From positions 806,001 to 854,945 of the forward strand of contig QPGO01000009.1 of the NCBI GenBank assembly GCA_008632985.1: DNA of 48,945 bases, given 5' to 3'. The notes below the pieces were generated by a model. It did not search any database and was not told the DNA's origin. It saw nothing but the letters and a program-made list of their open reading frames with translations. Positions 1-40,014 of the stretch are shown piece by piece. Position numbers and translations under genes: made by a program. The DNA is from Psammoneis japonica. Lineage: Eukaryota. The stretch's first letter is position 1; each line of letters opens with the position of its first letter.

Positions 1-3000
1 GTGCTTGCCGAATTTGTGGAGCGCGATCCGGACCATTGTCTGAGCAAGAAATTCACGCAGCTCTGGGAGAACGACGTGTGCTCTTCCCCAGGCCCCTGTG
101 TCCCTCCAGCTCTAGAAGACCTCGAGTCCCACTTCGACACCTGTGATTCAGAGGAAGCCCTCGGCCCGCTCCCGACCGAGCCGAGCCACTGCTTTGACAC
201 GGTTGAGGAGCTCTCTCCGGACTATTTTCGTTTCGACGAGCTGTCCACCAAGTTTGGTTTCGTGGACACCACTCCATGGCAAGACCCTGTGAAGCTTCTC
301 CAGGCAGCTGCTGACGGAACCGAAGCCCATCCCACTCATACCTCTGTGCAGGTGTTGACGGGCCAACGTTCTTCAGCACAACTCGCCGCCGACCCGCAAG
401 CTTTGCTGAGTCTAGCACATGAGCGCCACACCGTCACATGCGACACTGGCGCATCCTCAGCCATTGCTTACGATGAAAACGACTTTATCGGACCTCTGAC
501 GATCCCTGATGGCCCATTGAAGCTTGGGGGTCTAGCAAATGGCTTAACCATCGCCGGCATCGGACCCGTCTCCTGGGTTTTCCATGACGAGGACGGCTCT
601 GAGCTCGTCGTCAAGACGATGGCGTGCCATGTACCTCAGGCCGGACAACGTCTTCTATCCCCACAACGCCTCTACAGCAAGGAACATGGCGTGACAGGAA
701 AACATGAGGGAGACGAGGACTCATTTCGAGTGCATGTTGATGGCGTCGGTTCGCTCAAGGTCGCGTGCGCGTCAAATCACTTGCCGGTTGCGTCTGTGAC
801 CAACGGGGTGGCACCCGCTCCTCAAGTCAATCTGTCTGTGTTGCACGAGGACAACCAGAACCTCACCACCGGTCAGAAGCTCCTTCAAGAATGGCACTTC
901 AGGTTTGGTCACCTGAACATGCCACGCATCCAAGGCCTGCTTCGGGCCGAACCTTTTCTCCGACCCAAATTCAAGCATGCTTCGCGTTGCGACATTCCGC
1001 GGTGCGAGGTGTGCGAACATGCCAAAGGACATCGCCGAACCCTCAAGTCTGCCAAACATGCGGCTACTCCAGAGCGTGAGGGTGCTCTTCGAGCCGAGCA
1101 TCTACGTCCAGGCCAAGCCGTCAGCGTGGATCACTTCGAATCCCGTCTCCTCGGCCGAACCTGCGACTCCTGCGGGAAGGCCTCGTCCCAGCAATGCAAA
1201 GGAGGCTGCATTTTTGTGGATCATGCCTCCGGTTACCTGCGTGTTGAACACCAACTCGGTTTCTCTGCTGTGGAAACGGTGCGAGCGAAGCAAGCGTTTG
1301 AAAAGCACGCGATGGACCACGGCGTCATCATCCAGGAATTTCTTGCCGATTCTGGCGCTTTCAAGGCCAACACTTTTGTGCAACACATGCGACAGCACGA
1401 ACAACGTCTACGTTTTTGCGGAACCAACGCCCACCATCAGAACGGCATCGCAGAACGCGGCATTCGCTCCGTCTCCAACATGGCGAGAGCGATGCTCCTC
1501 CACGCATCCATCCGTTGGAAGGGGGGCANNNNNNNNNNNNNNNNNNNNNNNNNNNNNNNNNNNNNNNNNNNNNNNNNNNNNNNNNNNNNNNNNNNNNNNN
1601 NNNNNNNNNNNNNNNNNNNNNNNNNNNNNNNNNNNNNNNNNNNNNNNNNNNNNNNNNNNNNNNNNNNNNNNNNNNNNNNNNNNNNNNNNNNNNNNNNNNN
1701 NNNNNNNNNNNNNNNNNNNNNNNNNNNNNNNNNNNNNNNNNNNNNNNNNNNNNNNNNNNNNNNNNNNNNNNNNNNNNNNNNNNNNNNNNNNNNNNNNNNN
1801 NNNNNNNNNNNNNNNNNNNNNNNNNNNNNNNNNNNNNNNNNNNNNNNNNNNNNNNNNNNNNNNNNNNNNNNNNNNNNNNNNNNNNNNNNNNNNNNNNNNN
1901 NNNNNNNNNNNNNNNNNNNNNNNNNNNNNNNNNNNNNNNNNNNNNNNNNNNNNNNNNNNNNNNNNNNNNNNNNNNNNNNNNNNNNNNNNNNNNNNNNNNN
2001 NNNNNNNNNNNNNNNNNNNNNNNNNNNNNNNNNNNNNNNNNNNNNNNNNNNNNNNNNNNNNNNNNNNNNNNNNNNNNNNNNNNNNNNNNNNNNNNNNNNN
2101 NNNNNNNNNNNNNNNNNNNNNNNNNNNNNNNNNNNNNNNNNNNNNNNNNNNNNNNNNNNNNNNNNNNNNNNNNNNNNNNNNNNNNNNNNNNNNNNNNNNN
2201 NNNNNNNNNNNNNNNNNNNNNNNNNNNNNNNNNNNNNNNNNNNNNNNNNNNNNNNNNNNNNNNNNNNNNNNNNNNNNNNNNNNNNNNNNNNNNNNNNNNN
2301 NNNNNNNNNNNNNNNNNNNNNNNNNNNNNNNNNNNNNNNNNNNNNNNNNNNNNNNNNNNNNNNNNNNNNNNNNNNNNNNNNNNNNNNNNNNNNNNNNNNN
2401 NNNNNNNNNNNNNNNNNNNNNNNNNNNNNNNNNNNNNNNNNNNNNNNNNNNNNNNNNNNNNNNNNNNNNNNNNNNNNNNNNNNNNNNNNNNNNNNNNNNN
2501 NNNNNNNNNNNNNNNNNNNNNNNNNNNTGAAAATCGAAATTGACGCGCCACTCCACCGACGTGCATGGGAAATGGTGCCAAGAACGGCAGACATGAATGT
2601 GCCACCCGGCACATGGGCTTTCAAACTCAAACGACTCCCGGATGGCACGCCCTTGAAATGCAAGGCACGACATTGCGTTCGCGGCGATTTGCAGAAACAC
2701 GGGATCGATTTTTTCGAGACCTGCGCGCCGGCAGTGCAATGGTCGTCCATGCGCCTTCTCCTCACCACGGCACTCAAGGAAGGTTGGGCTGCACGTCAAG
2801 TGGACTGTGCCACAGCCTTCTGCCAAGCTGACATCAAGGAGAAGGTCCATGTAGAGCCTCCCAAGGGTTTCCAACCAAAATCGGGCGCCGATCTGGTGCC
2901 AAAATTGTTGAAAGGCCCACATGGCCTACGCCAGTCTCCCAAGTGCTTCTGTGAAAAGCTGAGGGACGGATTGCTCGAAAGAGGATGGATTCAATCCGCC

Positions 3001-4134
3001 ATTGACCCTTGTCTTTATTTCAAAAAGGGCATGTTGTGTGTGGCACATGTTGATGATGCCGTGTTCGCCGGCGCATCGGCCCAAGCCTTGGAAGCAGAGA
3101 TTGCCAAGTTGGGCATTTCCAACGATGAGCAACGCCATGTCTTTGATCTACGTGATGAAGGCGAAGTCGGCAACTTTCCAGGTGTCAAGATTCAAAAGCT
3201 CGAAGACGGCCGATTCCTCCTGACCCAACCCGGCCTAATTGAGAAAGTTCTCCGAACCGCACAGATGACTGAGTGCAACGGCGCACCCACTCCTGCCTTG
3301 CCTGCTCCTGCTGGCAGCGATGCCGACGGGCCACCGTTCGAAGAGCCTCATGACTGCCGTTCCGTGGTCGGCATGCTGATGTGTCTAGCGTCCAACAGCC
3401 GCCCGGACATTGCTTGCATGACCCATCAAGTCGCACGGTTCTCCTGCGCACCCAAGGCCTCCCACGCTGCGGCCATCAAGCGCATTCTTCGTCACCTGAA
3501 GGATGNNNNNNNNNNNNNNNNNNNNNNNNNNNNNNNNNNNNNNNNNNNNNNNNNNNNNNNNNNNNNNNNNNNNNNNNNNNNNNNNNNNNNNNNNNNNNNN
3601 NNNNNNNNNNNNNNNNNNNNNNNNNNNNNNNNNNNNNNNNNNNNNNNNNNNNNNNNNNNNNNNNNNNNNNNNNNNNNNNNNNNNNNNNNNNNNNNNNNNN
3701 NNNNNNNNNNNNNNNNNNNNNNNNNNNNNNNNNNNNNNNNNNNNNNNNNNNNNNNNNNNNNNNNNNNNNNNNNNNNNNNNNNNNNNNNNNNNNNNNNNNN
3801 NNNNNNNNNNNNNNNNNNNNNNNNNNNNNNNNNNNNNNNNNNNNNNNNNNNNNNNNNNNNNNNNNNNNNNNNNNNNNNNNNNNNNNNNNNNNACCTCCCA
3901 GCATCCGTTGTGTACGAAGACAATGCTGCCTGCCTCCAACTCGCCCGTGTGCCAAAATTGTCCCCACGAACCAAGCACATCGGCATTCCCCACCATTGGT
4001 TTCGTACTAAAGTTGAGGCTTTGGAGATCAAAATTGAGCCTGTGAGCTCAGCTGCACAGCTTGCTGACCAGTTTGCTAAAGGATTGACTGTTGATCTGTT
4101 CCGCACTGGCCGCAAAGCCCTCATGGGCTGGTGA
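1..4134 (+). mobile_element. Ty1/copia (CoDi-like) LTR retrotransposon pol: protease, GAG-pre-integrase, integrase, RT, RNase H; 5'-truncated by the window, gapped, and degenerate through TpA mutation
   Basis: Copia domain order: CDTGAS protease; WHFRFGH...CEVC zinc motif; integrase VSVD...DSG...QNGIAER; RT KARHCVRG, HGLRQSP, HVDD, RPDIA; RNase H EDNAAC...RTKHI...QLADQFAKGL. Confidence 0.95.
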
Positions 4135-4160
4135 CTGACAGTTCTCCTTCTCTTTTCGGT

Positions 4161-4432
4161 TGAGAGGGAGAGTCACGAGTCAACAACCGAGTCTGATTCA
4201 CGGATGACGCTCCCGGTCATGGATCTCTTCTTCCGGAAGAAATGTCCGTTGAGTCTTCTAGCGACAGCAATCGGAGTGACACACACGACCGTCAGGTCAT
4301 GATGTCATCTCCAATCCCTCGTGAGATCTTCTCACAATTCGCATCTTTAGCGTATCTTATTGTCCCAAAAAAACCTACTTCTTATCATCCTCTGTTGTAT
4401 TGTACAACCTCAAGAGAGTCCTGAACTCTCCA
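4161..4432 (+). repeat. Polypurine tract (TGAGAGGGAG, 4161-4170) followed by the probable 3' LTR; right end approximate
   Basis: Purine run 27 nt after the pol stop. The 5' LTR is outside the window, so the end cannot be confirmed. Confidence 0.55.
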
Positions 4433-4594
4433 TCCTACACAGTGCATTGTTGCATCCCAAGTCTACGATGTGTTGGTGTGCGAGGCTGTATGATTTTGAT
4501 TGTATGTACGGTCACCGCGCAAGCAAGACACGAAGAGGTGCGGTCTGTCCATAGTACCAGTACTGGTACCGGTAGCTACTAGAGCGAGAGAGGT

Positions 4595-4802
4595 TGGGGG
4601 AAGTCTCCAGCCAGCTGCTGGCTGAAGAATCTTGTGTAGAATTTGTACTGAATGAGTCTGTCAATCTGTGCGTTAGGGGGTTTTGATGAACGCTGGACAG
4701 ACTCGTCGTATTCTGTGTACGTAAAAATTCTACTGGCAAAACCCACAAACGCACTGACGAGCAGACTTTTTTCAGCCAGCAGCTGGCTGGAGTCTTCCCC
4801 CA
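4595..4802. mobile_element. MITE (208 bp) with ~35-bp TIRs and a 4-bp flanking direct repeat AGGT
   Basis: Left TGGGGGAAGTCTCCAGCCAGCTGCTGGCTGAAGAA; reverse complement of right end TGGGGGAAGACTCCAGCCAGCTGCTGGCTGAAAAA; AGGT at 4591-4594 and 4803-4806. Confidence 0.85.
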
Positions 4803-4837
4803 AGGTGGACGTGACACTTTCTCTGCCATCAACAACC

Positions 4838-6457
4838 ATGATGGCTTCTCCATCATCCAAACGACAGCCGCCGTTCCTTGCATGCATACTATTACTACTC
4901 GCAAGTAGTATCGTGATTTCCACCAATGCCTTTGTTATAAATTCATTGACAAATCATGCCAATAAGTCGTCATCAAGACTCTACGCAACAACAAAACAAC
5001 AACAAGAACGCTCCAAGATTCGACGAGCCTCCAATTTGTTGACGGATTGGGCACGTAATGATGCGGGTATTCAAATGGGTGGTGGTGTAGAAGTGGGAAC
5101 GAGTGAATTGGGCGGTTTGGGTTTGATTGCGAGCCAAGATTTAACTGCAGGTCAAGTCGTCGTGACGGTTCCGTCTTCGCTCGCACTGTCGGTACAAGTA
5201 CCCGGACAATCGAATAATCTACCACAAGAGTATTTTGATAGCAAGTCTCTCCAAGAACTTTCGTGGTTTGTTCAATTTTCAGCCTATCTACATGTTTTGG
5301 ATCTAGACAAACAAAAGGATAATGTCGACATGAGCGTATGGTTAGATTCGTTGCCACGGTCCTTTGATACGCCGCTGCACTGGTCCAAGGAGGCACGAGA
5401 TGAGTTGCAGTATTCCTTTTTACAAAATGCCGTGTCACGACAAGAATCGGAATGGAAGAAACATTACGAAACTGTGAAAAAGTCGTGTTTGGTCGATTTT
5501 TCTTTTGAGAAATTTGTGTGGGGCGCCGAATGTGCTCGATCTCGTGCCTTTTCGGGAACGACGGGTGCCGCCTTTGATGCCAAACCCTACGTGCTATCGT
5601 TGCTCTTGGTGGTGGTCTATGTGGGTTTGAATTTGGGCACACTGGAACAAGCCGCCAATGGTGCCGCCTTTGTCGTGTGTGCGTCCATTCTCAAGGATTT
5701 TGTTGTTCCAAAACTACTGAAAAAACAAACCTACGTCATTTGTCCCTACATTGACATGGCCAATCACAATTCGCAACAAACGTCCGCAAAGGTCGAATTT
5801 GAATTTTTTGGTAATGCCTACAGTTTGGTGACTTCAGAAGATATCCCGAGAAATTCCGAATTGTTCATTTCGTACGGACCCCGATCCAATGATCAATTGT
5901 TGCAATATTATGGATTTTGTGAAGCAAACAATCCTCATGATGTCTACGTCATGCCGCCTCTACGAGAATGGGATATCGATGCACTCGAACAAGCCACCGG
6001 ACGCCAATTTGCTCCGGGACGATTGGAAAAATTAAATCGTGCCGGATTGTTGGGGAGTAGTAGTAATGAGAATAATAATGGAGACGATGACATGGAGAAT
6101 GCAGCTGCCAATCGGTCACGTGGGGGTGTCGTGGTGACAAGGGCGGGTGGTGTCGATCCTGCCGTGATGCAAGCCTTGCGGGCTTTGGTGTCGTCCCAAG
6201 AGGAATGGACCAATGCCGGTGAGGCCATTGGTAATTTTGCCCAAGAAGTGGGACCTGACAATGAGCGTGCCACCCAAATTGCGGCCCGGACCGCACTGGA
6301 ATTGGAACTCGAATCCAAACCCACCACGATTCAACAAGACGAGGAGTTGTTGAAGCGAATTCCCAAAAAGGGAGCTGATGCGGAGGATGTTTTGGCGATT
6401 CAATTTCGATTGGAAAAGAAGAAACTATTGGAGGAAACCATCAAGGCGTTGCAGTAA
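4838..6457 (+). CDS. Plastid-targeted SET-domain lysine methyltransferase (Rubisco LSMT/SETD3-like)
   Basis: GLGLIA, IDMANH, ELFISYG, LLQYYGF motifs and a C-terminal substrate-binding region (TTIQQDEELL...RLEKKKLL). Signal peptide with TNA/FVIN cleavage site; start placed at ATG 4838. Confidence 0.9.
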   Translation: MMASPSSKRQPPFLACILLLLASSIVISTNAFVINSLTNHANKSSSRLYATTKQQQERSKIRRASNLLTDWARNDAGIQMGGGVEVGTSELGGLGLIASQDLTAGQVVVTVPSSLALSVQVPGQSNNLPQEYFDSKSLQELSWFVQFSAYLHVLDLDKQKDNVDMSVWLDSLPRSFDTPLHWSKEARDELQYSFLQNAVSRQESEWKKHYETVKKSCLVDFSFEKFVWGAECARSRAFSGTTGAAFDAKPYVLSLLLVVVYVGLNLGTLEQAANGAAFVVCASILKDFVVPKLLKKQTYVICPYIDMANHNSQQTSAKVEFEFFGNAYSLVTSEDIPRNSELFISYGPRSNDQLLQYYGFCEANNPHDVYVMPPLREWDIDALEQATGRQFAPGRLEKLNRAGLLGSSSNENNNGDDDMENAAANRSRGGVVVTRAGGVDPAVMQALRALVSSQEEWTNAGEAIGNFAQEVGPDNERATQIAARTALELELESKPTTIQQDEELLKRIPKKGADAEDVLAIQFRLEKKKLLEETIKALQ

Positions 6458-6608
6458 GAGAGATACTCTTTCACTTTGTAGAGCTTTCGAGATCCATACC
6501 TTCAAAACGGAAACACAGCTCCCTCACTGTCGCGGAGAAATAATACCTTCCCTGGAGTACATTACTCTGTTTTTATGTACTACTTGTAGCTAGAGTTTAC
6601 ATGAAAAG

Positions 6609-8678
6609 TCACACAGACATGGCCTCATTCAGCTCATTTACAGCCACGGCCACATCCTGCGCTTTCGTCACGGCGCCAATGACAGCCACACAATCGGCTC
6701 CAGCATGCTTGACAAAGGATGCCGTTTCGGCATTCCCAATTCCTCCAATGGCAACAAATGGCATGTCGGGTGGTATCAATTGTCTCCATTTCGTAACCGT
6801 CTCCAAACCCTGTGGATCAAATGCCACGTTTTTACTCGCCGTCCCAAACACGGGACCCATGCTAATGTAAGATGGTTTCACTCCGAGTGCAACCGCCAGC
6901 TCTCCATAGGAATGTGTCGAAATACCTAGAGCCATGTTGTTTTCTTTCATGGTTTCCAAACCTCCTTTTTGAATGCACTTGTACAAGTCTTCTTGACCCA
7001 AATGAACACCAAAGCAACCGGCTTGACAAGCCGCATCCCAATGATCATTGATCCACAATCGGACATTGCTCTTGCCGCAAATGTCTTGACATTTTCGAAC
7101 CCGTTCCAGTATTTGTTGCGGATCGTTGGTGTCTTTGAAACGCAATTGAATATCTGTCACGCCCTCTGTCGCAGCCAAACGCTCTACCCATTCGACCGTG
7201 TCGACAATGGGAAGAATGCGGCCCAAACACAAAGCATTGTCGTTATTGTTGGTGCTACTACTCCAAGGAGACATGGGACGAAACGGCGCTGTGGCAGCAT
7301 CAGAAGAAGCTGTTGGATCCATTACAATGGAAGGAAAGTACCGAAAGGAGGACGGGAATTCTGTATGAATAACTGGTCCAGGACCTTGGCCAATCTGCAA
7401 CATACAATAAAGAAAGAGAAAAGCGTTTGGCGACGGCGTTCAGTATTGTTATGGCACAAGACAGGCAATACACTACTAGTACTTACACCACCTCCAACCT
7501 CAATACCCTTTGTCACATAGGCCTTGGCCAAGCAACAAGCATCTACTGAAAAGATTGCACTCGTGGCTCCACTACTACCACTACTACTACTACTACCATT
7601 GCTTCGTGCAGCGTGGCCAAGCGCCAGTGAGCAAGCAATAGCGGACGACAAGGTACAACCCGTCCCATGAGTATGCTCTGTATCGTAGCTACAATGGAAA
7701 AAGGAAGGGCGGAGGAGAATAAGTATGAGCATCATGAATTGACCCACATTAATGATAATCAACGATTTGACGTACCGATTGGTCCGAAGCCATACACCCA
7801 AATGCCCATCACACAATCGTTCTTCTTCATCATCATTCGAAGGTTTTGTCGAAAGAAAATAGTCTTGAGCATATCCCAAGGTCACCTTTACACCTTCTGA
7901 CGCTTCTGCATTATTATTTGTGGAGGATTCCGTCAAGGTATGACCGCCCTTGATGAGAACGGCCTTGACACCCATGGCAAGCATGTCGCGTGCGCCTACA
8001 TTACGCGAAAATAGCACGTTAGTTTTTATGGTCAACCCCAAACCACAGAAGACGATCAAACAGGAACACCACTTGTATATACTCGTACTCACCTTTTTCA
8101 ACATCTTGTGGTGTTTGCAATTTTCGGTCCAATAGAGCTTCGGCTTCAAATTTGTTGGGTGTCAAAATATCGACATATGGAAAGATTTGGTCCATCATGG
8201 CTTGTTTGGTTTCATCATTGATGAGTTTGTGCCCCGAAGTGGAAATCATGACGGGATCCAAAACGATAAAGGGCCGGTCTTTTCGAGACACTTGCTCCTT
8301 GACAAAGGCACCTACAGCCTCTGCCAATTCTCGTGTACCCAACATTCCAATCTTGATGGCTCGTGGCGGCATGTCACTCGAGAGTGTGTTTAGTTGCGTC
8401 GTGAGAAATGTAGCGGGAGGAGTGTGAACGTCCGTCACGCCCACTGAATTTTGAGCCGTAAGACAGGTAATGGCCGAACATCCGTGTCCTCCCATGGCAT
8501 GAATGGCATGCAAATCGGCTTGGATTCCAGCGCCTCCACCCGAATCCGATCCGGCAATCGTGTACACAACGGGAGGCGGTGATGATGATGCTAATGCGTG
8601 GCACGGGGAGGACGTCATGGTCAATAGTTGTAGAGCAGTAATGCAAGCAGTAAACCAAGGATGAAGCATAGAAAGCAT
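6609..8678 (-). CDS. TH1: Bifunctional HMP-P kinase / thiamine-phosphate synthase (ThiD-ThiE fusion), 4 exons
   Basis: IAGSDSGGGAGIQAD, LDPVM, TPNKFEA, LIKGGH, HGTGCTLSSA (ThiD); QLRFK, INDHW, GVHLGQED, GISTH, VAIGGI (ThiE). Introns 7996-8092, 7689-7775 and 7395-7486 are all GT-AG and keep frame; N-terminal signal peptide. Confidence 0.95.
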
Positions 8679-9097
8679 GTGATATCGACAGGCTGCCCTT
8701 GCTTGGAAGGCCTCGCTCTACCTACTTCTGTTTCACAGCAACGACCGACGACCGGAGTTGTGGCGATGATGTGTGCGATGTTGCCGTTTTCATGGTGCGA
8801 TCCGGGTGATCCGGGAAGCCGCAGACCGATCGCGCGCCCGCGCAACAAAAATGAGGATGACGTCATCGTTCACAACTCGTGATTGAAACAATTCCATTCA
8901 CGTTTCTTCCCGTGTCAAAATCTTCCGCGAAAAAGATCTCCATCTTCACAACCTCCTGACTTGGAACAGGAAGAAACAAAGGATCGCCGTCAACTTGTCA
9001 ATACGGTACAAAAGAGAGAGCTAAAGTTCGAATATCCCCACTCAAGTGCTCTCCGTTCCGACTACTACAACTGTAGAGGAAAACAGATTCGTCCAAG

Positions 9098-10686
9098 ATG
9101 ACATCATCTGAAAAACAAGGAGCTCCGTTACCCGCCTCGCACACGGTACGTTGGATACTGGTTGCGACTGGAATGCTCCAAATCACCTTGGGCGCTGGTT
9201 TGGTGGTTGGATGGGCTGGAATTGCGGGTTCCATCTTGACAGCAACACGAGTCAGTGGTGGAGCGGGTCTCACCTTGGATGAAACCACAACCTTGTACGG
9301 CTTTGCGGCAGCTTCCAATTACTTGTCACCCATTTTCTTGGGAGCCATTTTAGATCACCGTGGGCCTCGAACAGCGTCCTTTGTGTCCAATGCCCTCGTG
9401 GCGGTCGGGTGTTTGTTGTTTGGTCAAGCAACCACTTTTCGGCAATTTGCGGTAGCAATTTCCATGGTGGCGTTTGGTGGACCGGGTGTGCAGACGTCAG
9501 TTATTCATACAGCCAATCTCTTTCCGGCCAATCGATATTTTGTCATGGGACTTGTCGGTGAATGTATTACACTCAGTTTTGCCGTTTTCCCATTGATGGA
9601 TGTGATTTGGCAAACCTATGACGTGGATTTTGAAACGCTCTTTTACGGACAGGCAATCTTGGTGGCACTTTCGGCCATTACCTCGTTGTGCATCTGGCCC
9701 GACACACCGTATGAACACGTTCATGTTGAAGAAGAAAATAAGACGGCCGACGCTGGAGAAACCGAAAGCGAGAAATTGCTATCCTCAGTCAAGGAAAAAA
9801 CAGATCCACCACTTCAGGAACAGTCGCTCATCAAACAACTCACCAGCGGAGCTTACATTCGGCTCAGTATATTCTTTCTTGTCACCTCCTTTTATGCCAA
9901 TCTTTACATTGCCACGGTGACGACAGAGGTAAGTGTATGTGTTGAGAACCAACTTGCTTTATCATTACTTGTCATCTCATACCTACTATTCACGTTTCGT
10001 AATTCGAACAGCTTGGAGACACACAACAGTTTACTTTTGAAACTCAGCATCAATTGGCAAGCACGCTGAGCTTTATTGATGCCGCCGCCATTCTCTGCGC
10101 TCCACTATCCGGATACTTGTTGGATTCGGTCGGTTTTGGCGCGGCAGCCGTGGTTGCAATTTCCTTGGGTATGGGACAAATGATTCTCCTCTTGGTAGCC
10201 AACATGGACATGTTGGATTCTTCCTACGACAGTCCCGATTTTCCCTTCATCATGGCAATCATGATTGCCAGCTTTATCTGTTATGCAGCATTTCGAGCCT
10301 TTTTGTTTCCTTACTTTTTTGCCAATCTATCCAGAAAACTGGGATTTCGCTTTTTTGGCATCTTGTCGGGATTATCCTTTTGTGCGTCTGGACTTTGTCA
10401 ATTGGCCATTGCGCCTCTCTCCAAGTTGGTAGACGGAGAATGCCACCACATCATGGACAATACGTTTGAAGAGTACCACAATGAAGACTGCGATCAAGGA
10501 AATTGGAAGCTGTTGCACGTCATTCAGTTGGTGAATTTGGCATTGCTCTTTCTTATCCCCTACTTTGATACACGCTCAAGTTCCATTGCTGCGGCCGAGG
10601 AAAAGACTCTTCAAAACACCGACTCTGAATATGGATCCACGAGCAGTACGGACGGAGACGGTGTGATTGGAGTTCAAGTGTACTAG
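9098..10686 (+). CDS. MFS transporter, SLC43/LAT3-FMP42-like, 2 exons
   Basis: About 12 hydrophobic segments and MFS motif A (GAILDHRGPR; GYLLDSVG). Intron 9929-10011 (GTAAGT..CAG) joins two ORFs in frame. Confidence 0.85.
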
Positions 10687-10963
10687 TATATAGTACGCAA
10701 CTTCAGTTAATTTTGTACATACTACACACGCGACATGAATTCATACTAAGGAGACAACGAGCTCTGTTGGTCTGTTGGATTTGAGCGAGGGGAAGACAAC
10801 GATCGCGGTTGACGGGATGCAGGGTTTTTCACAGACCAGAGATATCATAAATCAATGTTTTACCATGACGACTTTGAGCGTTGCAGTGATGTGAAGATTT
10901 GCGCCACGAATCAAACCCTTGCGTGGTTTTCAATCCGAACAAAACTCAATCTTTTCCAAATTT

Positions 10964-11127
10964 CTAACACGTGACTTGGCATAACGTGTTAAGGAGTAGC
11001 TGTGCTTTCCACCGATTCACTAGCCCTATGCCCCCCGTCTATTGAGCAGTTGTTGTCCATGTAGCAAGCTCTTGTAAACTGATAGAAGTCGAGAAATTGG
11101 CGATTCTGAACCAGCGGTAGAGTTTGA
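10964..11127 (-). pseudogene. Truncated 3' fragment of the gene at 16699-17736
   Basis: Aligns to 16699-16864 with a 5-nt deletion and a 3-nt insertion; TpA sites are retained. Confidence 0.9.
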
Positions 11128-11250
11128 AATCGACCGAAACGACCGGTGCTCATCATATACTCTAGAGTAGGTCTATCGTTGGATCCTTGTAGGATTAAAT
11201 CATGAACGACCGCAAGCTACCTACACGGCACCTCCTATCTCGGCATCAAG

Positions 11251-12507
11251 TTAACTGTCTGAAGAATCAGTTTCCGTCGACTTTTTTATTTCGGCAGAAA
11301 TTTGCTCTTGCAAAAGCTGTAGATTCTGCAATGCAGCCTTCAACTTAAGTTTCTCCAAGGACTTCTGGATATGTTGCTTTTGATCCGCTTTTCCAAACGG
11401 ATACCACGATAATTTGTCTAACTCCATTTCCAATTTGTAAATTTGTTCCTCTTGATTGCCAAGTAAATTTTCATACTCTGCAGAAGATGAATCGTCCAAG
11501 TCATGGAATTGGGACTCGAGTGCGATTCTTGCCTGCACAACCGCAAAATGGCGAGCTTTTGGATCCGCTCTTGGTAGGACAAGGCATTCCACTGAAGCCA
11601 CTTCTTTTGTACCGTCATGGCCACCAATGGCATACACCTTGTTGCCCAGCACTACAGTGGCAAGACTAGATCTTGCCATAGACAAATCGGGCAGCGAAAT
11701 ACATACATCTCGATTCGTATCAAATACTTCCACCGAAGACAACTTATCGCCGTCATTGTCTTCGCCACCGACAATTATGATAGAGTCACCCCACTTTTGA
11801 ACTCGCATGTGCCATTTGGGTGTTGACAGTTTTGCTTGACATAATTTCCATCTCTTCAGGTCAGTGTCTAGACACTCGATGGTATTCAAATTTTCTTCAC
11901 CATACCCACTGTCCCCACCAACAACATATAATTTAGTCCCAACAGCTTCCGCTGCACCTCCCCATCGTGCGGTAGTCATGGGTGGACCTTGCAGAATTTC
12001 GTCCGTCGCTGTGTCTAAAATGTCTACCGACGTTTTGCCCGATCCACCAAAGATGTACACATATCGTTCTCCCACTGCAGCCGCTGTGCATCCGTATCGT
12101 GTGCAAGTCAATTTTGCTTTGAGTATTTGCCATTTTGGTTCATTGAGAGATAAATCCAAGCATTCGATGGAATCAAGAGTACCTCCATCCAGTCCCCCAA
12201 ATACATAAACTTTGTGTTGTGTAAAAACTGCCGCATGATGACTACGGGCACGATTGAGATTAGGCCATGACGACAATTGCTCCCATTCTTTAGACTCAAG
12301 ATTGCAAACTAATACTCTTGATAAACGTTTGTTTCCGTCATTGCCACCAATAATCATGTATTTTTGATTGCTTATTGCGACCGCCGCGTGGTCGCTCCGT
12401 GGTTCTGGCAAAGGCGGAACATGCGACGACCATGCGACTTGTTCCACGTTTCCGATGCCGACCAAGAGCAAATCTCTTTCTAATCCGTTATCACCCGATA
12501 ACGACAT
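11251..12507 (-). CDS. Kelch-repeat beta-propeller protein with C-terminal coiled coil
   Basis: Six repeats of R..HAA....VYVFGG....S.E.YD....W; Leu/Gln/Lys heptad tail; single 418-aa ORF. Confidence 0.9.
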   Translation of the reverse strand: MSLSGDNGLERDLLLVGIGNVEQVAWSSHVPPLPEPRSDHAAVAISNQKYMIIGGNDGNKRLSRVLVCNLESKEWEQLSSWPNLNRARSHHAAVFTQHKVYVFGGLDGGTLDSIECLDLSLNEPKWQILKAKLTCTRYGCTAAAVGERYVYIFGGSGKTSVDILDTATDEILQGPPMTTARWGGAAEAVGTKLYVVGGDSGYGEENLNTIECLDTDLKRWKLCQAKLSTPKWHMRVQKWGDSIIIVGGEDNDGDKLSSVEVFDTNRDVCISLPDLSMARSSLATVVLGNKVYAIGGHDGTKEVASVECLVLPRADPKARHFAVVQARIALESQFHDLDDSSSAEYENLLGNQEEQIYKLEMELDKLSWYPFGKADQKQHIQKSLEKLKLKAALQNLQLLQEQISAEIKKSTETDSSDS

Positions 12508-12639
12508 GTTGTGTATTTTGACTTTCTGAGGAGCAACGTGATACCGTACTCCTAAAGGTTAGCGAGGCTAGAGCGGGGAGTGACACGAAAAAATGAATGA
12601 AGCTAAAATAACAGCTGGGAAGCAGTGTGAAGATGCCGA

Positions 12640-15600
12640 CCGTTGTTCAGCCGTTACGGCGGCATCTCTCGACACTGTCATGCCAGAACGAATGATCATC
12701 TGTTTGCGACGATGGCACAGCTAGAATCAGTGAAAAAGTTGAAACAACCAGTGCCAAATGACAAAAGCCATTTAGAGTTTTTGGCCTCTGGCAAACAACA
12801 GAGCAACCAAGATTTGCCAACTCGTGTTTCTTGCTCCCACCCAAATCAGCAGTGATCAAAATGGTGTCTCTTGGCCACACACGGCAAAACCACTGTGGCG
12901 CTGGCCAACAATTGCCGAAATGCAACACAAACCTCATGAAAAAATTTCTGCTCCAATGTTCTTTCCCAAGAATTTCACGTGGTGGCCAACACAGCAGTTT
13001 TGGGCAGATGATTCAGCGCCTCTTCACACATCTTTGGAGAGGAGCACTTCTCTTTTGGGGGGCCCACACATCTGATTTGTTGAGAGGAGCTGGAAATTGC
13101 CATCACCAGCAAATGAACAAAAGCTTTCATGTCCTCAGCATGGTGCTGGCCACTGTTTTATTGCTTGTGCACTGCCCCACAAAAGCTTCTGCACTCACAA
13201 GCAACTTCAAACCACAAGTGGCAGCAACTGGAGCAGCTTCGGGCATTGTCAATGCGAGCATGAATGCAACACCTTGTTGCTCTGGAGTGTTGGCACAAGA
13301 AAAGGTGTTTGTTTTGGGCATGGCTCAAGATGCTTTTTGTGCTAGGGTGATGAATGTCATCACACAAAATGAAGCTCAAAAGCTTGCAGATCAAACATCA
13401 GCAGGGGTCACCATCACACTCTGGAAGGAGCAGTGGCAGCTTTGTCATGGCAGAAAAAGTTGCAGTGGAGAGTTGTCAGAGGTGCAGCCAGGTGGAATTC
13501 AGGTGGCTGTTTTGCAGCTGCAGCATGAGACAGGGGGGGGGGGCAAGCAGTGGCAGCACTGTTGGACAGGGGCACTTTTCTCATCAAAAAGAGTGGTTTT
13601 TGTTGGGATTGGTGCCTGTTTGCATTGGCAGCTGGCTGAGGAACATTTCTTTTTCTTTCACACAGAACAGTGTCATGTGGGTGGCAGCAGTGAAGCAAAA
13701 AAAGAGTGCAGCAACAGGGGCGGTGGGCTTTTCTTTTTGCACTCTGAGATGAAATGAGCACTCTGGTGCACGCAAAAGTTCAACACACATGTGATGTAAA
13801 AAGAGTGAAGGCAGAAAACAATTGCAAGCTCCCAAAACAATGAAAAAAGTCCCATGCAAAGCTTTTTTCTCACATGGAAGTTGACAAATTCTCCAAAGTG
13901 GCTGGCTCAAAAACTCCTCTTTCAACAACCAAAAACTCAAAAAAAAAAACACAAAACGCCATGATGCCAAAAACATTTTCCTGGCGTTGCTGCACAGAGA
14001 GATTGGTTTTGGAAAAAACTCAAATTGAAGGGAGCTTGCAAACAGGCAAAATGTGACATTTGATGGATTGCACATTTTTGTGCCACCTGGAGCTGATCAG
14101 AAGAAAACAATGCTGCCCATGCTGGCAGAGCCAACAGCAAGAAATTGCCAACCTTGGTCAAGGAAGAAACAGGTCCGCTCTTCACAGAAACAGTTTTTCA
14201 TCAACAACTGGCAAACAAAGCTTGTGCTCCATGCTCAGTGTGTGCTCTTCCTTGTTGCCTCCTTTTGTGCCCACCTTTGCATTGCCACAGTGACCACAAG
14301 GCAAGTCTGTGTGACAAGTCAACTTGTGTTGGCATTGCTTTTCAACGCATGCCTGCCATTGATGTTTTGCAGCTCAAGCAGCTTGGAAAAGCATGCTTTT
14401 AAAATTTGTCATCAATTGGCAAGTGTGCTGAGCTTTGTTGCAGCCCACTGCTGCAGCTGCACTGCTGCCTGGGTGCTTGTTGGTGCAGCAGCAGCCATGG
14501 CTGCAAATTTGGGCATGGGTCCAATGATTCTCCTCTTGGTGGCAGACATGGACACACTGGATTTTTCATGCAACACAGCCCCAGTTGTGTCTTCCTTTCA
14601 TCATGGCAACCACGGTTGCCAGCTTCATCTGTTGTTCAGAATTTTGAGCCTTTTTGTTTCCCTGCTTTTTTGCCAACCCACCCAGAAAACTGGATTTGGG
14701 TTTTTGTGGCATCTTGTTGGGTCCGTCCTCTTTTGTGCATTTGGGGCATTGTTCCTCTCTCAAACTTGGTTCATGGAGAATGACACCATGTTGTGGACAG
14801 CACATTTGAGGTGCACATCAAGGAAGACTGCGGTCAAGGAAATTGCAAGCCATTGCATGCCATTCCAAATGGCCAATTTGGTGCTGCTTTTCCATGTCCC
14901 CTGCTTTCATGCCACTCAAGCTCTGACATTGCAGCCAAGAAAGAAAAGGCTCTCTTTGACACATCAATGTGGAACATGGACCTGCTGGCAGCATGGGCGG
15001 AGACAGCGTGACTGGAGCTCAAGTGTGCAAGCTGCCAGAGAGTGTGCAGCAGGAGGCAGTGTCTCAATTTTGTGCACGCCGCACCAGCAGCATTGACTCT
15101 CACTTCTGGAAAGACAACAACAAGCTCTGATTGATTGAGCAGGAGGGAACAATGACCATGGTGGATGGGGTGCAGAATTGTTGCTGGCCCAAGGTGTGAT
15201 GAAGCAAGGCAGCCATGAGCGCTGCAGTGGCATGAAGATTTGCACCATGAGTCAAAAACTTTTGTTGTTTTGTGAACATTGAGTGGTGATTGATCTTTTT
15301 TTAACACATGACTTGGCACAACATGTTGAGAAGCAGCTGCACCTCCCACCAATTCACACATCCAGCCCCGTGTCTCCTGCCCGCTGAGGAAATTTTCAGC
15401 ATTGTGCCACAGCCAGTTTTAACATTTTCCCACTGATGGGTGTGACACCTGGCAAACCAATGATGTGACTTTTAAGATGCTCTCTTGTGAGAGCAGGCAA
15501 TCTTGGCAGCTTGCTCAAGCTGAAAAGGAGATCAGAGTGCAGCCGACACTGCTGGCGATGGAGCCAACAGTGACAAATTGTTGTCTCCACCTCAGCAAAG

Positions 15601-16450
15601 AAAGAAAGAGGTTTGTGCCACTTTGGGGACAGTTTCTTGTCAAACAACTTGCCAGATGAGCTTGTGCTTGGCTCCACACATTTTTTCTTTGTCTTTTGTT
15701 GCCTCCTTGTGTGCCAATCTTTGTGCTGCCATGGTGAGATGACAGAGGCAAGAAGTGTGTGGGTTGAGAACTGCGTGCTTTGTTGTTGCCTCTCATTTCA
15801 TGTGCCTCCTGCTGCTCACATGCACAATTCAAACAGAGCATCTTGGAGGAGACACAACAAACATTTTTCTTTTGAAACTCAGTGCCAGTTGGCAAGTGCG
15901 CTGAGCTTCATTGACATTTTTGCCATTCTCTGCACCCCACTGTCTAGAGATGCGCTTGATGGGCTCACTTGGCTTTGGCAAAGAATCAGCTTTGGTTGAA
16001 ATTTCCTTGTTGGGCATGGGCCATGATTCTTCTCCTTGTGGCCAACATGGACTTGTTGGAATCTTCACATGATGCCAGCCTCAATTTGTCCTTCATCATG
16101 GCAATCATGATTGCCAGCTTTGTGCCTTTTGTCTCCCTGGTTCTTTGCCAATCTATCCAGAAAACTGGGATTTTGGTTGTTTGGCATCTGTCTTGTCAGG
16201 ATTGTCCTTTTGTGTGGCCATTGTGTCTCTGTGCAAGTTGGCAGATGGAGAACGTCACCATGCAATGGACAACACGTTAGAAGTGCCACAATGAAGACTG
16301 TAATCAAGGAAAGTGGAAGCGTCATTCAATTTGGCTGATTTGGCCTTGCTCTTCCTCATCCCCTGCTTTGATGCACGCTTAAGTTCTTATGTTGCCTCCG
16401 AGAAAATGACGCTTCGACACACCGAAACGGCATGTGGATCCGCTGGCAGT
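12640..16450. other. TpA- and CpG-depleted hypermutated block 1
   Basis: TA and CG are almost absent and CA/TG abundant; long Tyr-free, Cys/His-rich spurious ORFs in many frames. Confidence 0.85.
14099..15388 (+). pseudogene. Hypermutated duplicate B: MFS 3' half, downstream spacer, and 3' tip (15301-15388) of the 16699-17736 gene
   Basis: SFYANLYIATVTT becomes SFCAHLCIATVTT; donor GGTAAG becomes GGCAAG; LGMGPMILLLVADMD versus LGMGQMILLLVANMD; TTAACACATGACTTGGCACAACATGTTG versus TTAACACGTGACTTGGCATAACGTGTTG. Confidence 0.9.
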
Positions 16451-16476
16451 GCGGACGGAGACGGCGTGATTGGAGT
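15400..16476 (+). pseudogene. Hypermutated duplicate C of the MFS transporter (matches from about 9563 to the end of the gene)
   Basis: FIMAIMIASF, FFANLSRKLGF and ALLFLIPCFDAR match the intact gene (IPYFDTR); the intron is retained with a mutated donor. Confidence 0.9.
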
Positions 16477-16698
16477 AGTTAATTTTGTACAGTACATACA
16501 ACATGAACTCACACTATATTATGATGACAACGAGCTCTGTTTCGATTGAGCGATGGGAAAATAACGATCGCGGTGAACTATCACTGGCCCGAGACATACT
16601 AAAACAAGGTTACCGCGAACACTTTTTAGCATTGCAGTGATGTGTTTGCACCACGAATGCTTTCGTTGATTTAGATGTCGAACATTAATCAATCCGTT

Positions 16699-17736
16699 TT
16701 AACACGTGACTTGGCATAACGTGTTGAGTAGTAGCTGTGCTTTCCACCGATTCACATACCTAGCCCTATGTCCCCCGTCCGTTGAGCAGTTGTCCATGTA
16801 GCAAGCTCTTGTTAACTGATAAAAGTCGAGAAATGGGCGATTCTTGACCAGCGGTAGAGTTTGATGGTAAGCTTGTCCGTTCCTGCCAACATCAGGCCGG
16901 TATTCTTCGGGTACTTTTTGCTTTTGATAACACGGCATAGAGTTGAATACAACGTTTGGCGCGCTGTCAAGGAACGCTTTGATTTCGTGAGAAAATCTCG
17001 TAATGTTGCTTTTAAGCGACCCTAATATGTGAATGCCAGCACCCACTATTGCCGCGAAGCTGGTCTTGTTTTGTAAAATGGAATTGATGCAGTTCGAGCA
17101 CTCGAGATGAAATAACGATCCCCCCTGTCCGTAGCATTCAGCGCTGCAAACATAGCCCACTGCGGGATATGACTTGTTTTGCTGCCAATGATCGTGAAGG
17201 GCCTGCATGGATAGTTTCAGAACCTCTCGTCTATGGGAAGCATTCATTATTTCTTCATTGCTAGGATTCTCCAACAGAATGTCAATCAGTCCGATATAAA
17301 GTTGAATGTTGTAGCTGTCTCCAGATACCGCTACTCGAATATCTTTGTTTGATGAGAGGCAGTCGATGGCTTCTTGGGAGGAAAAAAGATGAAGCCTCGA
17401 CCTAAATACCTTGTCGGTCGGCAAGCAAATGCCCTCGTTTAACGCTGCTAGTTGTATCGTGTCGAGATGTTTGTAACTGTTGCAGTAAAAATCGTCCATT
17501 GCTCTATATTGCTTGCTTCTGATTGTTGTGGACCAACGACAAGCAGCATCTACTCCATACGGAAGGAATCTGTGCGGAAACGGAACGAATGTTGACGTGA
17601 CATTCGTGACATTCTTGTTCTGTATTTTTGATTGATTCACCGCGTTCGTTTGACTTGATTGAAAACGAAGAATATATCCTCCCAAGCAAACAGCAGTCAC
17701 ACTATAGATCAAGGCTTGTTTTGCTACCTTTCGCAT
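16699..17736 (-). CDS. Type II membrane SGNH/PC-esterase (TBL/NXPE-like) acyltransferase or esterase
   Basis: N-terminal TM anchor (MRKVAKQALIYSVTAVCLGGYIL), GDS motif (VSGDSY), C-terminal DxxH (TDGGH). Confidence 0.7.
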   Translation of the reverse strand: MRKVAKQALIYSVTAVCLGGYILRFQSSQTNAVNQSKIQNKNVTNVTSTFVPFPHRFLPYGVDAACRWSTTIRSKQYRAMDDFYCNSYKHLDTIQLAALNEGICLPTDKVFRSRLHLFSSQEAIDCLSSNKDIRVAVSGDSYNIQLYIGLIDILLENPSNEEIMNASHRREVLKLSMQALHDHWQQNKSYPAVGYVCSAECYGQGGSLFHLECSNCINSILQNKTSFAAIVGAGIHILGSLKSNITRFSHEIKAFLDSAPNVVFNSMPCYQKQKVPEEYRPDVGRNGQAYHQTLPLVKNRPFLDFYQLTRACYMDNCSTDGGHRARYVNRWKAQLLLNTLCQVTC

Positions 17737-18059
17737 TTCACTACCGTCGGTATTATTTGTTTGCAGGTTGCAACAACAGCAATGACATAACAACGCGATC
17801 GCAAGACTGAGAGCTTCCTCTCTGCTTTTGGCGAAATGAAATCGCGAAAAAACCAATAATTTCAAATTTTCCACCGCGCTCGCGCTCACATTGCCCTGAC
17901 GACGACTCGGTGTCGCGCGAACGTGCCGCTCTCGCGAAAGCGCGCGCGCGGCGACAAGGCACCGCACGCACGACATCACACACATCACCGGTCGAGGTTC
18001 GAGGTTCGAGGTGCAATCTACTCTCTAGCGCAGCAACCTTGGCGATCTTTTTGCAGGAG

Positions 18060-19900
18060 AGAACGACAAGGATGGTGATTGTTTGTTCCAATGAAGAATC
18101 CTTTCATCAAACAACAACACTGCTGTGTGTGGCTCTAAACTGGCTGCACAATCTTCAAGTCTCAACATCGCCTCAAAGTGGGGGTTCAACAGCAAAGTCA
18201 ATCTGCTTGATGAATTCACTCAAATGCCAAAGCAACAGAGTGGAGGAAATCTGCCTTTGCTGACACCATCTATCCTCACATGCACAAATGATTGTCAACA
18301 TGCAGCAATGCCTGTGTTGGAACACTGACACAGCACAACAAGAAGCAACAAATTGTTCCCCCCTCCCCCGCCAAAGTGTGCGGACCTTCAAACCCCCATC
18401 AGATCATTTGGCTTTCCCAAAATTGATTTTGGGCACATGGACAATGCTTCTGTTCTTCTTTGTCTTCTTCACTGTTGACAAACATGACGTTGAGCCAGAC
18501 CTGCAATCGCCCGGGAGCATTGCGGGCCAGACCTCGATTGACCAGGAACTCTGCTGTGGTCGAGTGGCACACGTTTGGCTTTGCTGACCCCAAACTCACT
18601 GTGTGGCTTGCAACCACCCCAATGCTGCTGACTGCTGTTGCCATGTCAGCTGGGTGCAGAAGCTAAAAAGTGAGCGGAAAACCCGCATCTCAGCCTGAGT
18701 TGTGAGCGCAACTTTGCCACATTGTCCACAATCGTCGGCACATCTTGCACTGCAACATTGTCTGTCTGTCCTGTGAAAACTGCCTCTGACCCTGATGTTC
18801 CAACAGTCACCTTTCCAACAGAGGTTGTCTGCTGCACTTGCTGAGATGAGAAGAGGAAAGGCAACTCTGGGCTGCAACTGTTGCAACCTCAGTTTTGGAG
18901 CATGCTTTTTCTGCAATTTGGTGCAGTGATCCAAAACTTGCAAGCACTGTGATCTGACCTGTCTGTGCAATTTGTTCTGTTGTCTGGGAGCTTCCTGCAG
19001 CACTTGTGGCACACCAGCCAAGGGGCTGAGGGTCACAGAGAGACAGGCTTGTCTTCTTTCACAAGTTGCTCCAGCACCAAAATGGATCTTCTTGCAAAAG
19101 CTTGTTGGGAGATGCTCAATTTGAGCTGCAGTCAATGACATCACATGGCCAGAAAGCTCAGCAGCAAAACTCTCACATCCTCCTGGCACCAGCAATCCAC
19201 CCCCAATCATTTGTGCAGACCGCTGGCCAAAAAGCACTGGCAAAAAAGTGGAGTCTCTGCTGCAATGCTTGCCCCAGTCAATTGGGAAGCTCCAGATCAG
19301 GCAGTGAGCCAATGCCGCACCTTTGGAAGAGTCCAGCAGAGCCCAAGATTTGCCCAGCTGGCAAAGACCTTTGCTGTTGCAAGAAACTCAAAAGCCCCAG
19401 TTTGTCTGCATTGCAGAGAATCCAAAGATGGCACTGATCTTGTTTTGTGCTGCACAGCCCTCTTGGATCAAAAGAGGCCTGGACTTTGAAATGATGGCTT
19501 GCCAGCCAACTGGCTCAGCATCCCTTTCTGTGTAGGGGGGTTGTGCAGTCACTTCAATCATGCCATGATGAACAGGGCACACCTGCACCCACTTCCAATT
19601 GTTGTCCACAGGCACAAGCAACCCATCCAACCACACCCATCTTGCCAGATGGTTCACCAGGCCAATGGAGTCAGTTCAAGCAGAGGAGACTGATTTCAAA
19701 AGACATTGGCCAGAGGCAGTTGCAGTGGAAATGCAAGCTGTGGCCCTTCTGGATGCTGATTGAAATGCTTCGTCAAGACAATGGTGAAGGGTTACTTCAG
19801 TTGTGCAGTGTGTCAATCGCCCCACAACTCTGCGTGCGACAATGTGCATGACATGTGTTGCTGACGTTCTGCTCCCATCCATGTGGTCCTGGATTGAAAG
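18060..19900. other. TpA/CpG-depleted hypermutated block 2; original identity unrecognisable
   Basis: Same dinucleotide signature; abrupt return of TA at about 19920. Confidence 0.8.
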
Positions 19901-20279
19901 GAAAAAACAGGATGCGTTTCTAGGCAGCAGCTCGTCGCCGATAAAATTTAAAAGTGTCTGAAATACGGTACAATCATGGGCTCAAGGTACAACGTAGACA
20001 TTGCCAGTTTGGTCTTTTGCCTGTTGTTTGAGTTGTGTATCTTTGGAAGAAGTGCCGGCAGTAGAGGTTAGCAAATTGAAAAAGAGGACTGGTTAACCCA
20101 CAGCCAAGAGGAAGCGAACTGCTCAATAAACGCATGGTCTAAGAACATCAAAAGATGCTTGCCGCCAAATAATCAACACGCACTACATGAAGAATAAAAC
20201 TGATAAGGAAGCATGCAGAAACCAATGTGATACAAAAGCGGTACACCCCTCGAGCAAACAAGTTGTCAAAGTTGCGCTT

Positions 20280-39769: not shown

Positions 39770-40014
39770 AGATTTGTATTATAGAATTACATGAATGCTA
39801 CAGTACGCAAGTTTCTAGTGATAGACTACCGTTATATTCGTTTTCCTCTAATACTAGTCAAGGGATCAGTCGTGTCCTTTTTGTATGGTGGGTAAATACG
39901 ATTGCATAGAAACTAGACTACTCGGCATCACTGTACTTTGAGACTACGAGAGAACGAAAGCCTCTCCATGTCTCTCCCTAGCTCTAGTCCGTCGTGTAGT
40001 ACACTTTAAACTTC

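Follow-up and report, generated by a model that had tools for sequence, protein, structure and literature searches.

We analysed a stretch of 48,945 nucleotides from the diatom Psammoneis japonica (assembly GCA_008632985.1, contig QPGO01000009.1, positions 806,001 to 854,945 of the forward strand; hereafter the window), the first 4134 nt of which carry a Ty1/copia retrotransposon whose frame +1 is one open polyprotein frame of 1377 codons, two runs of N included. The subject of this report is the almost complete loss of the dinucleotide TpA from that element and from three intergenic blocks farther along the window, named B1, B2 and B3, together with a host gene for an MFS transporter, whose 3' half has two duplicates, copies A and B, lying wholly or partly in B1. 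The features are collected in the table, where o/e stands for the ratio of observed to expected dinucleotide counts.

Table. Features of the copia element, the TpA-erased blocks and the duplicated MFS gene in the window
Feature	Position	Strand	Remarks
Gag-protease-integrase N-terminal part	1..1528	+	open at window edge; TpA 15 vs 69.8 expected (o/e 0.22); CpG o/e 0.97
First N run inside copia frame	1529-2527		
Reverse transcriptase	2528..3505	+	RVT_2; TpA 6 vs 47.3 expected (o/e 0.13); CpG o/e 0.89
Second N run inside copia frame	3506-3892		
Polyprotein C-terminal end (…FAKGL…LMGW) and TGA stop	3893..4134	+	aligns with relatives' C-termini; TpA o/e 0.30; CpG o/e 0.54
TpA-poor untranslated tail	4135..4345	+	1 TpA vs 12.7 expected (o/e 0.08); CpG 1.04
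TpA-rich, highly repeated segment, candidate 3' long terminal repeat	4346..4593	+	248 nt; 19 TpA, o/e 1.07
Unmutated MFS source sequence, 3' half of gene	9563..11127	+	83-nt GT-AG intron; composition normal
Block B1	12750-16250		TpA o/e 0.04, CpG 0.15
Copy A of MFS 3' half	14099-15388		in B1, tandem with copy B
Copy B of MFS 3' half	15403-16864		left part in B1
Block B2	17950-19750		TpA o/e 0.06, CpG 0.20; multi-copy repeat, depth 465-1070
Block B3 (23100-28900), left part	23250-24000		TpA o/e 0.10, CpG 0.49
Block B3 (23100-28900), rest	24001-28900		TpA o/e 0.03, CpG 0.07

The reverse transcriptase (RT) was recognised through a match to the Pfam family RVT_2 (PF07727) at 2530-3504, with E 2.5e-34 and 119 bits against a cut-off of 31.6. 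The translation of 1-1528, upstream of the RT and in the same frame, contains the protease motif CDTGAS and an integrase zinc finger of the H-H-C-C kind, and this arrangement gives the Ty1/copia order, protease-integrase-RT, as in the CoDi elements of diatoms. The match to gag_pre-integrase (E 1.1e-4) is under the Pfam cut-off, and the integrase core is hidden by an N run. The closest protein relatives are at most 61% identical and the named ones are diatoms, the nearest of these being a Fragilaria crotonensis protein at 60%. The RT belongs to a diatom Ty1/copia element, predicted to be of CoDi-like type. One copia-type RT protein (P0238) carries in its source record the label of a Gaiellaceae bacterium metagenome-assembled genome, into which eukaryotic DNA was probably binned.

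The 2748 visible coding bases of the element contain 25 TpA, where about 130 would be expected from base composition and about 61-73 from the ratio in host DNA (Poisson p about 1e-7). Host DNA of the window has a TpA o/e of 0.56-0.57 and a CpG o/e of 0.97-1.04. Among the RT regions of 33 metagenome relatives the TpA o/e ranged from 0.39 to 0.89 with a median of 0.61, and the lowest value among 611 windows of 500 nt taken from 80 related loci was 0.14; these metagenome loci were selected via intact VYVDDTI or GTWAFKLK patterns and are biased to unedited copies. An excess of CpA and TpG accompanies the TpA depletion across runs of adjacent windows, in the element as in the blocks, and the GC content is 56% in the element, 47-53% in the blocks and 46-47% in host DNA. 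A preliminary description of the locus, made from the letters alone, had proposed that loss of TpA is separable from decay of CpG, and the element bears this out, with CpG at 0.9 and TpA o/e at 0.13-0.30.

The effect of this loss on the protein was followed by aligning the three visible parts to 31 full-length relatives, which gave 424 columns at a consensus of at least 70%. The window keeps the consensus residue in 344 of these and replaces it in 80. Conserved Tyr is kept at a single position out of 18 (8 have become Cys, 7 His and 2 Phe; Fisher p 1.7e-12), in comparison with 39/39 for Gly, 25/26 for Arg and 10/10 for Cys, and 15 of the 17 lost Tyr are of the TpA>TpG or TpA>CpA type. The 80 replaced columns comprise 16 TA>CA, 16 TA>TG, 2 CpG-type changes, 9 other transitions, 19 transversions and 18 multi-step changes. 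With 32 of 80 replacements being TpA-targeted transitions, the systematic substitution of TA codons claimed in the preliminary description was confirmed. We also found in the sequence the altered motifs that it had listed, namely HVDD (CAT, 3046), ETCAPAV, PHGL, FPG (CCA, 3178), NVPP, CRSVVGMLMCL, DIAC and RHLK; KCKARH is likewise present, but its ancestral state is ambiguous, as the relatives have F or Y at both places.

All nine conserved Tyr of the RT part are replaced by His or Cys, that of YVDD among them, and the TA-type replacements of conserved residues number eight in 1..1528 and three in 3893..4134. For the RT alone, TA-type changes make up 21 of 44 replacements, against 1 of 231 in 13 control relatives put through the same analysis and chosen by their intact motifs. 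Among 214 database homologues with enough coverage, the share of the TA signature does not exceed 27% and has a median of 5%, compared with 16/26 for the window. The homologue P0099 was considered as a second edited example, since it keeps only 3 of 10 Tyr and has 4 His or Cys, but it was rejected because TA-type changes account for only 9 of its 70 replacements.

Some of the altered TA dinucleotides lie across codon boundaries. They are seen as five Thr>Ala and five Ile>Val replacements, and a preceding T with an A>G change fits four of the five Thr>Ala and one of the five Ile>Val. At such sites it is the next residue that is altered, which rules out codon preference as the cause. Five conserved Leu have become Pro. 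Taken on the alignment, we regard the TA-specific loss as a mutational signature, and as neither codon choice nor drift. An active family that is TpA-poor as its normal composition, whether through codon choice or to escape a TA-directed nuclease, and that tolerates His and Cys, is a very unlikely explanation. The family is indeed multi-copy, as described below, with at least two residues shared, the frame is open over 4.1 kb, and the catalytic Asp residues of the RT and the DTG of the protease are retained; according to the preliminary description, an active, multi-copy, near-identical family sharing the altered residues would make them ancestral features. Copy number and sharing turned out that way, but a functional ancestral state is contradicted by the loss of 17 of 18 conserved Tyr, that of YVDD included, and by the five Leu now Pro. 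The Thr>Ala and Ile>Val replacements are beyond the reach of codon choice, and none of the 214 homologues is similar.

The open frame itself is not really unexpected given the nature of the changes. TA>CA and TA>TG destroy the codons TAA and TAG, and the only stop that they can produce, TGA, arises from TAA, already a stop, so an edited frame stays open. Stops of the CGA>TGA kind would require CpG decay, which has not started in the element. The statement in the preliminary description that the frame has neither stops nor frameshifts is thus correct as to openness, but openness is what the TA>CA/TG spectrum would yield and is no evidence of selection.

Counting of TpA and CpG in 250-nt bins across the window delimited the three intergenic blocks, in which both dinucleotides are nearly gone and the edges are sharp within about 100 nt. 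CpA and TpG reach o/e values of 1.65-1.9 across all of them. The left part of B3 resembles the copia element in that TpA is gone and much CpG is retained, and its comparison with the rest of B3 (table) supports the earlier suggestion that loss of TpA precedes loss of CpG. The 250-nt bin with the most CpG in the window, 17751-18000 with 31, is situated at the left edge of B2 and at the 5' end of a minus-strand frame, 16702-18024. In 48 stop-to-stop frames of at least 90 amino acids from the blocks, no Pfam family was found at E<=0.001, the four matches at the weakest level having E of at least 0.06, and a tblastn search with 123 queries gave no RT-like match in the window beyond the element (best E 0.025). 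The blocks were considered as decayed copia elements, and this was rejected as they have no Pfam domain and no RT-like match. A BLAST search of the blocks coded as purines and pyrimidines found homology to the MFS gene alone; matches of 24-45 nt are those of chance in a two-letter alphabet.

The host MFS transporter gene was given at 9077-10683 (MFS_1, E 6.9e-14), and the 83-nt intron of its 3' half was seen in the sequence and was also skipped by one contig of a second run, X2, which looks like RNA. Copies A and B both retain the 83-nt GT-AG intron, and consequently arose by duplication of DNA and not as retrocopies. Erasure in copy B extends only to about 16250, the remaining 600 nt of this copy having normal composition.

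We used the unmutated MFS paralogue as the reference for the changes in B1, the counts being small and the reference itself diverged. Of the TA sites in the reference, TA>TG or TA>CA was found at 21/24 in pair 1 (TG 14, CA 7; one TA kept) and at 31/35 in pair 2 (TG 20, CA 11), TG being favoured about 2:1. Former CG sites became TG at 9 and CA at 8 of 24 in pair 1, with one kept, and CA at 15 and TG at 12 of 38 in pair 2. Double steps from CA to TG were seen at 9/47 and 13/68 sites, and from TG to CA at 1/41 and 3/66. The ratio of transitions to transversions was 99:30 and 174:78 in the two pairs versus 60:51 in the unedited continuation of the duplicate, and transitions were elevated beyond TpA and CpG, with NAY and TC contexts raised. 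GC-biased gene conversion was dismissed, as transversions from A or T to G or C were not raised.

Comparison of the two copies with each other gave 14 concordant and 6 discordant outcomes at former TA sites, where there is an overall TG bias, and 4 concordant and 8 discordant at former CG sites. Copies A and B are 64% identical to each other, and 72% and 75% identical to the source. The independent choice of TG or CA in the two copies, together with this lower mutual identity, indicates that editing took place in situ after the duplication and that the choice of strand was stochastic.

The outcome depended on the flanking bases. YTAY became TG in 27 cases and CA in 7, versus 3 and 7 for RTAR (p 0.006), and A>G was highest at TAC, with 23/30 on the plus strand, and at TAT (21/36), and low at TAA (2/9) and TAG (2/8). 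The 30 TpA that survive in the blocks include 18 YTAR (16% in host DNA, p 6e-8) and no RTAY (31% in host DNA, p 3e-5). The C>T changes were frequent at NCG, with some increase where T precedes (TCA 11/46). Judged by these contexts, the preferred target is the adenine in 5'-TAY-3' or, equivalently, the thymine in 5'-RTA-3', and such dependence on the flanks speaks for an enzyme and against spontaneous decay.

Chemistry other than deamination of adenine could act in silenced domains as well. Thymine at TpA could be oxidised or otherwise modified there, and modified thymine is able to mispair with G; alternatively, repair in methylated heterochromatin could be biased or error-prone, with decay of 5-methylcytosine at CpG in addition. 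Such a chromatin-bound route would suit the sharp edges, which ignore the limits of the duplicated units, as in copy B with its mutations only to about 16250, and also the joint loss of TpA and CpG in the blocks and the transitions raised in B1 beyond these two dinucleotides. It assumes, however, a putative DNA modification, and it has to accommodate the strong asymmetry between TAY and TAR on the adenine strand, though this can equally be written as RTA for thymine. The authors who described a similar process in the chlorarachniophyte Bigelowiella natans favour deamination of adenine as the putative chemistry (Mettrop et al., bioRxiv 10.64898/2026.01.13.699255). We consider the non-deaminase route unlikely.

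In the element the strands are equally affected, with 16 TA>CA and 16 TA>TG among single-step non-synonymous changes. The preliminary description had taken two-strand symmetry as an argument against editing of the element RNA or of a single cDNA strand, and this argument is strengthened by the presence of the signature in intron-bearing DNA duplicates. A more elaborate form of editing during retrotransposition can be envisaged, in which an ADAR- or ADAT-like deaminase acts on the genomic RNA (TA>TG) and on minus-strand cDNA or an RNA:DNA hybrid (TA>CA), so that copies are born hypermutated, a parallel being APOBEC3G and the human immunodeficiency virus. The target is a retroelement and its state is inherited by many copies, both of which agree with such a route; the TpA-rich segment past 4345 could reflect a substrate limited to one region, and the B. 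natans preprint mentions in its Discussion that ADARs prefer a 5' U (Mettrop et al., bioRxiv 10.64898/2026.01.13.699255). Such a route appears improbable nevertheless, as the signature, with CpG loss, is found in duplicates of a host gene that kept their intron and never passed through spliced RNA, the 16:16 symmetry demands equal editing of two separate substrates, and independent copies born dead would not share stochastic TG/CA choices.

That choices are in fact shared was suggested by the contigs of one public run, which we aligned on window 1-20000 at a likeness of at least 80%. In B1 and in most host bins the depth was about 55-69, single-copy depth being about 64. Over the element it was 500-6400, and the RT bin at 2962 corresponds to about 46 times single-copy. 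The matches listed give 40 of 565 rows of differences, and among them the positions at which no contig shares the letter of the window are 1241, 3255, 3418, 3419, 4044 and 4050. Contigs and relatives agree on CAT (His) at 1241, against CGT in the window. At 3418-3419 the window reads ATG and the contig GCG, that is CGCG>CATG, or two private changes of CpG type. This contig has a depth of 719 (about 11 times single-copy) and reaches at least 52 nt to each side, and no difference of equal support was found in that span among the matches listed; it should thus also carry the Tyr>Cys codons at 3382 and 3415.

Given that the choice of strand is stochastic, shared codons suggest descent, the edited state having arisen in a progenitor that then multiplied. 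A deterministic choice between TG and CA was rejected as the cause of the sharing, since copies A and B differ at random. That the burst of mutation was private to the window copy is not supported, as the family is multi-copy (RT depth 2962 versus about 64) and at least two Tyr>Cys codons are probably held in common. In the viral contigs searched we found no close relatives of the element for polarising its changes at the nucleotide level, no RNA run was listed as containing the RT stretch, and run X2 gave no contigs on the element or the blocks, which is evidence neither for nor against expression.

The same contigs bear on the question of an artefact, in which modified bases would be miscalled in repeats during sequencing or assembly. 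No more than 0.55 of the 31-mers sampled across the RT were present in the run, and the six element positions given above have no contig with the window letter among the matches listed. On the other hand, contigs of single-copy depth reproduce B1 over 2176 nt with 6 letters differing, which places this unusual sequence in the reads; the TpA-less element sequence is present in contigs of high depth; and miscalling would have to account for CA>TG changes at both letters of the step and for a divergence of about 30% from the paralogue. An artefact is therefore hardly credible.

The erased zone ends at about 4345, 211 nt past the stop codon, and is followed by the candidate 3' long terminal repeat (LTR). 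The bin containing it, 4003-4669, has the highest summed depth (6380). We found no repeat partner of 4346-4593 in the window, the 5' end of the element being outside it, and no LTR pairs among nine related loci. One contig of single-copy depth joins 4135 to 4392, omitting 256 nt after the stop, and may represent a structural variant of another copy or an insertion here. Adjoining the end of the copia element is a 210-nt unit, 4594-4803, bounded by 36-nt inverted repeats (4594-4629 and 4768-4803, 94%); its depth is high and many contigs join the two arms with varying inner lengths, so it looks like a multi-copy element resembling a miniature inverted-repeat transposable element.

Beyond this unit is a host gene, SET/LSMT, at 4859-6454, whose best named matches (about 50-60%) are from the raphid pennate diatoms Seminavis, Nitzschia, Pseudo-nitzschia and Epithemia. 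Clusters of differences at 4924-4970 and 6458-6516 are present in about half of the run depth and look like two diploid haplotypes. Farther along, the window contains a pair of 500-nt segments, 32802-33304 and 34925-35425, both of them normal in TpA and CpG and lying within two unnamed minus-strand open frames, a tandem duplication of 172 nt at 40009-40352, and short inverted repeats (39-53 nt, 92-97%) between 45521-45609 and 47422-47874, beside a third N run.

Several known systems offer comparisons, that of B. natans being the nearest. In this alga, 231 of 302 nuclear point mutations in mutation-accumulation lines fell in two integrated viral regions, and 230 of these 231 were A>G or T>C, all of them at TpA, so that TpG or CpA resulted. 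Windows poor in TpA and rich in CpA and TpG form 124 clusters in its genome, RT and DDE domains are over-represented among the TpA-poor coding sequences, and an ADAT2-like enzyme that deaminates adenine in DNA is the explanation put forward by the authors (Mettrop et al., bioRxiv 10.64898/2026.01.13.699255). The diatom window is like this in its A:T>G:C transitions at TpA on both strands, in having resident foreign or mobile DNA as the target, in its clustered TpA-poor windows and in acting at the DNA level. From its base changes, the element would match the B. natans type in every feature examined.

It differs in the lineage, a stramenopile instead of a chlorarachniophyte, and in the targets, which are an LTR retrotransposon family and host-gene duplicates in place of a single-copy target. 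Erasure goes to o/e 0.03-0.2, compared with 0.45 in the nucleocytoplasmic large DNA virus region of B. natans. A restriction to TpA fits the element, with 2 CpG-type and 9 other transitions out of 80, whereas B1 to B3 have also lost CpG. There is a preference for a 3' pyrimidine in the diatom window, while the words 'CpG', 'trinucleotide', 'flanking', 'diatom' and 'retrotranspos' do not occur in the preprint text that was accessible. Finally, de novo mutations were measured in B. natans, whereas the diatom case is read from the sequence.

Repeat-induced point mutation (RIP) of fungi consists of C>T changes mainly at CpA and yields DNA that is rich in AT and in TpA. The diatom case is like RIP in being a transition-only hypermutation, in place, of repeated or mobile DNA, with bounded tracts and inactivation without deletion. 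However, TpA is destroyed here while RIP makes it, so RIP does not fit; GC is up, and the source gene, one duplicate set and part of copy B are spared. The B. natans preprint, too, notes in its Discussion that RIP causes C>T (Mettrop et al., bioRxiv 10.64898/2026.01.13.699255). Diatoms have DNMT4 enzymes that are relatives of RID, the RIP factor of fungi, and that are described as being of unknown function (Hoguin et al. 2023, PMC9998398).

Hypermutation by APOBEC3 or ADAR shares with the diatom case the deaminase-type, context-dependent transitions that kill the genes of retroelements. These enzymes act on one strand of a replication intermediate and leave G>A changes, or A>G changes in the sense strand of the RNA. 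Here the strands are equally affected and DNA that is not of retroelement origin carries the signature; RNA editing of the ADAR type does not fit because both strands are affected and intron-bearing DNA copies carry the signature. The CpG>TpG/CpA changes of B1 to B3 resemble the CpG decay of methylated transposons, but CpG is normal in the element (0.9) and loss of TpA is no product of 5-methylcytosine deamination. Our literature searches found no report of a TpA-erasure signature in diatoms, and a term search of the CoDi study of Maumus et al. 2009 (PMC2806351) gave no mention of RIP, hypermutation, dinucleotide or point mutation.

Considering all of this, we suggest that a host process probably edits silenced or unwanted DNA in place at TpA, that it is of the same kind as in B. 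natans, and that the edited state of the element spread by descent. In the coding DNA of the element the A:T>G:C transitions at TpA come close to saturation, and this on both strands, which implies that its protein is dead. The most likely chemistry would be enzymatic deamination of adenine preceded by T, which we propose with less confidence than the driving of the editing by the host. The edited state would have come from a progenitor copy and been passed on to at least about 11 copies that form a subfamily, the dead element presumably having been spread by mobilisation in trans through intact relatives or by duplication of DNA. Older targets would represent the end state, in which TpA and CpG are gone and CpA and TpG doubled.

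A number of observations weigh against this interpretation. Composition is normal in the MFS source gene and in the segments 32802-33304 and 34925-35425, which are 83% identical to each other, so duplication alone cannot be the trigger. If 4346-4593 is an LTR, in-place editing of the whole element fails to explain its richness in TpA, and the segment may have escaped editing or been renewed. The flank effect of B1 is not visible at the Tyr codons of the element (YTAY, 4 Cys and 4 His; RTAY, 4 Cys and 3 His), the changes in the element being polarised through relatives at most 61% identical and counted for non-synonymous changes only. According to the 40 of 565 rows of differences considered, the edited state seems common to about 11 copy-equivalents, so the burst would not have occurred in the window copy. 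The public run is possibly the source run of the assembly itself. Deamination is deduced from the base changes, and the evidence comes from a single window.

As a tentative and rather doubtful extension, diatoms may have a chromatin-guided DNA-editing defence in which an ADAT2/TadA-like enzyme, recruited to silenced domains, deaminates adenine in 5'-TAY-3' on either strand and, in combination with deamination of 5-methylcytosine, clears unwanted DNA of TpA and CpG, the two YpR steps that are self-complementary. Such a defence would be shared with chlorarachniophytes and old within the group of stramenopiles, alveolates and Rhizaria, and edited elements with open frames would spread as non-autonomous parasites of their intact relatives.

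Editing directed at TpA in resident foreign DNA has a single earlier report, a 2026 preprint on one chlorarachniophyte (Mettrop et al.). The present case is a new lineage and a new target class for this recently described kind of process, to which it adds sequence context, domains and an order of events. If our interpretation is true, the source gene and its two independently edited copies provide a natural polarised data set for modelling the spectrum, and the preference for TAY versus TAR, the sharp domain edges and the loss of TpA before CpG are clues by which the enzyme could be sought. Annotation would then have to reckon with dead genes among the long open frames of such genomes. The occurrence of the process in a second lineage, and one that is ecologically dominant, would argue that it is widespread.

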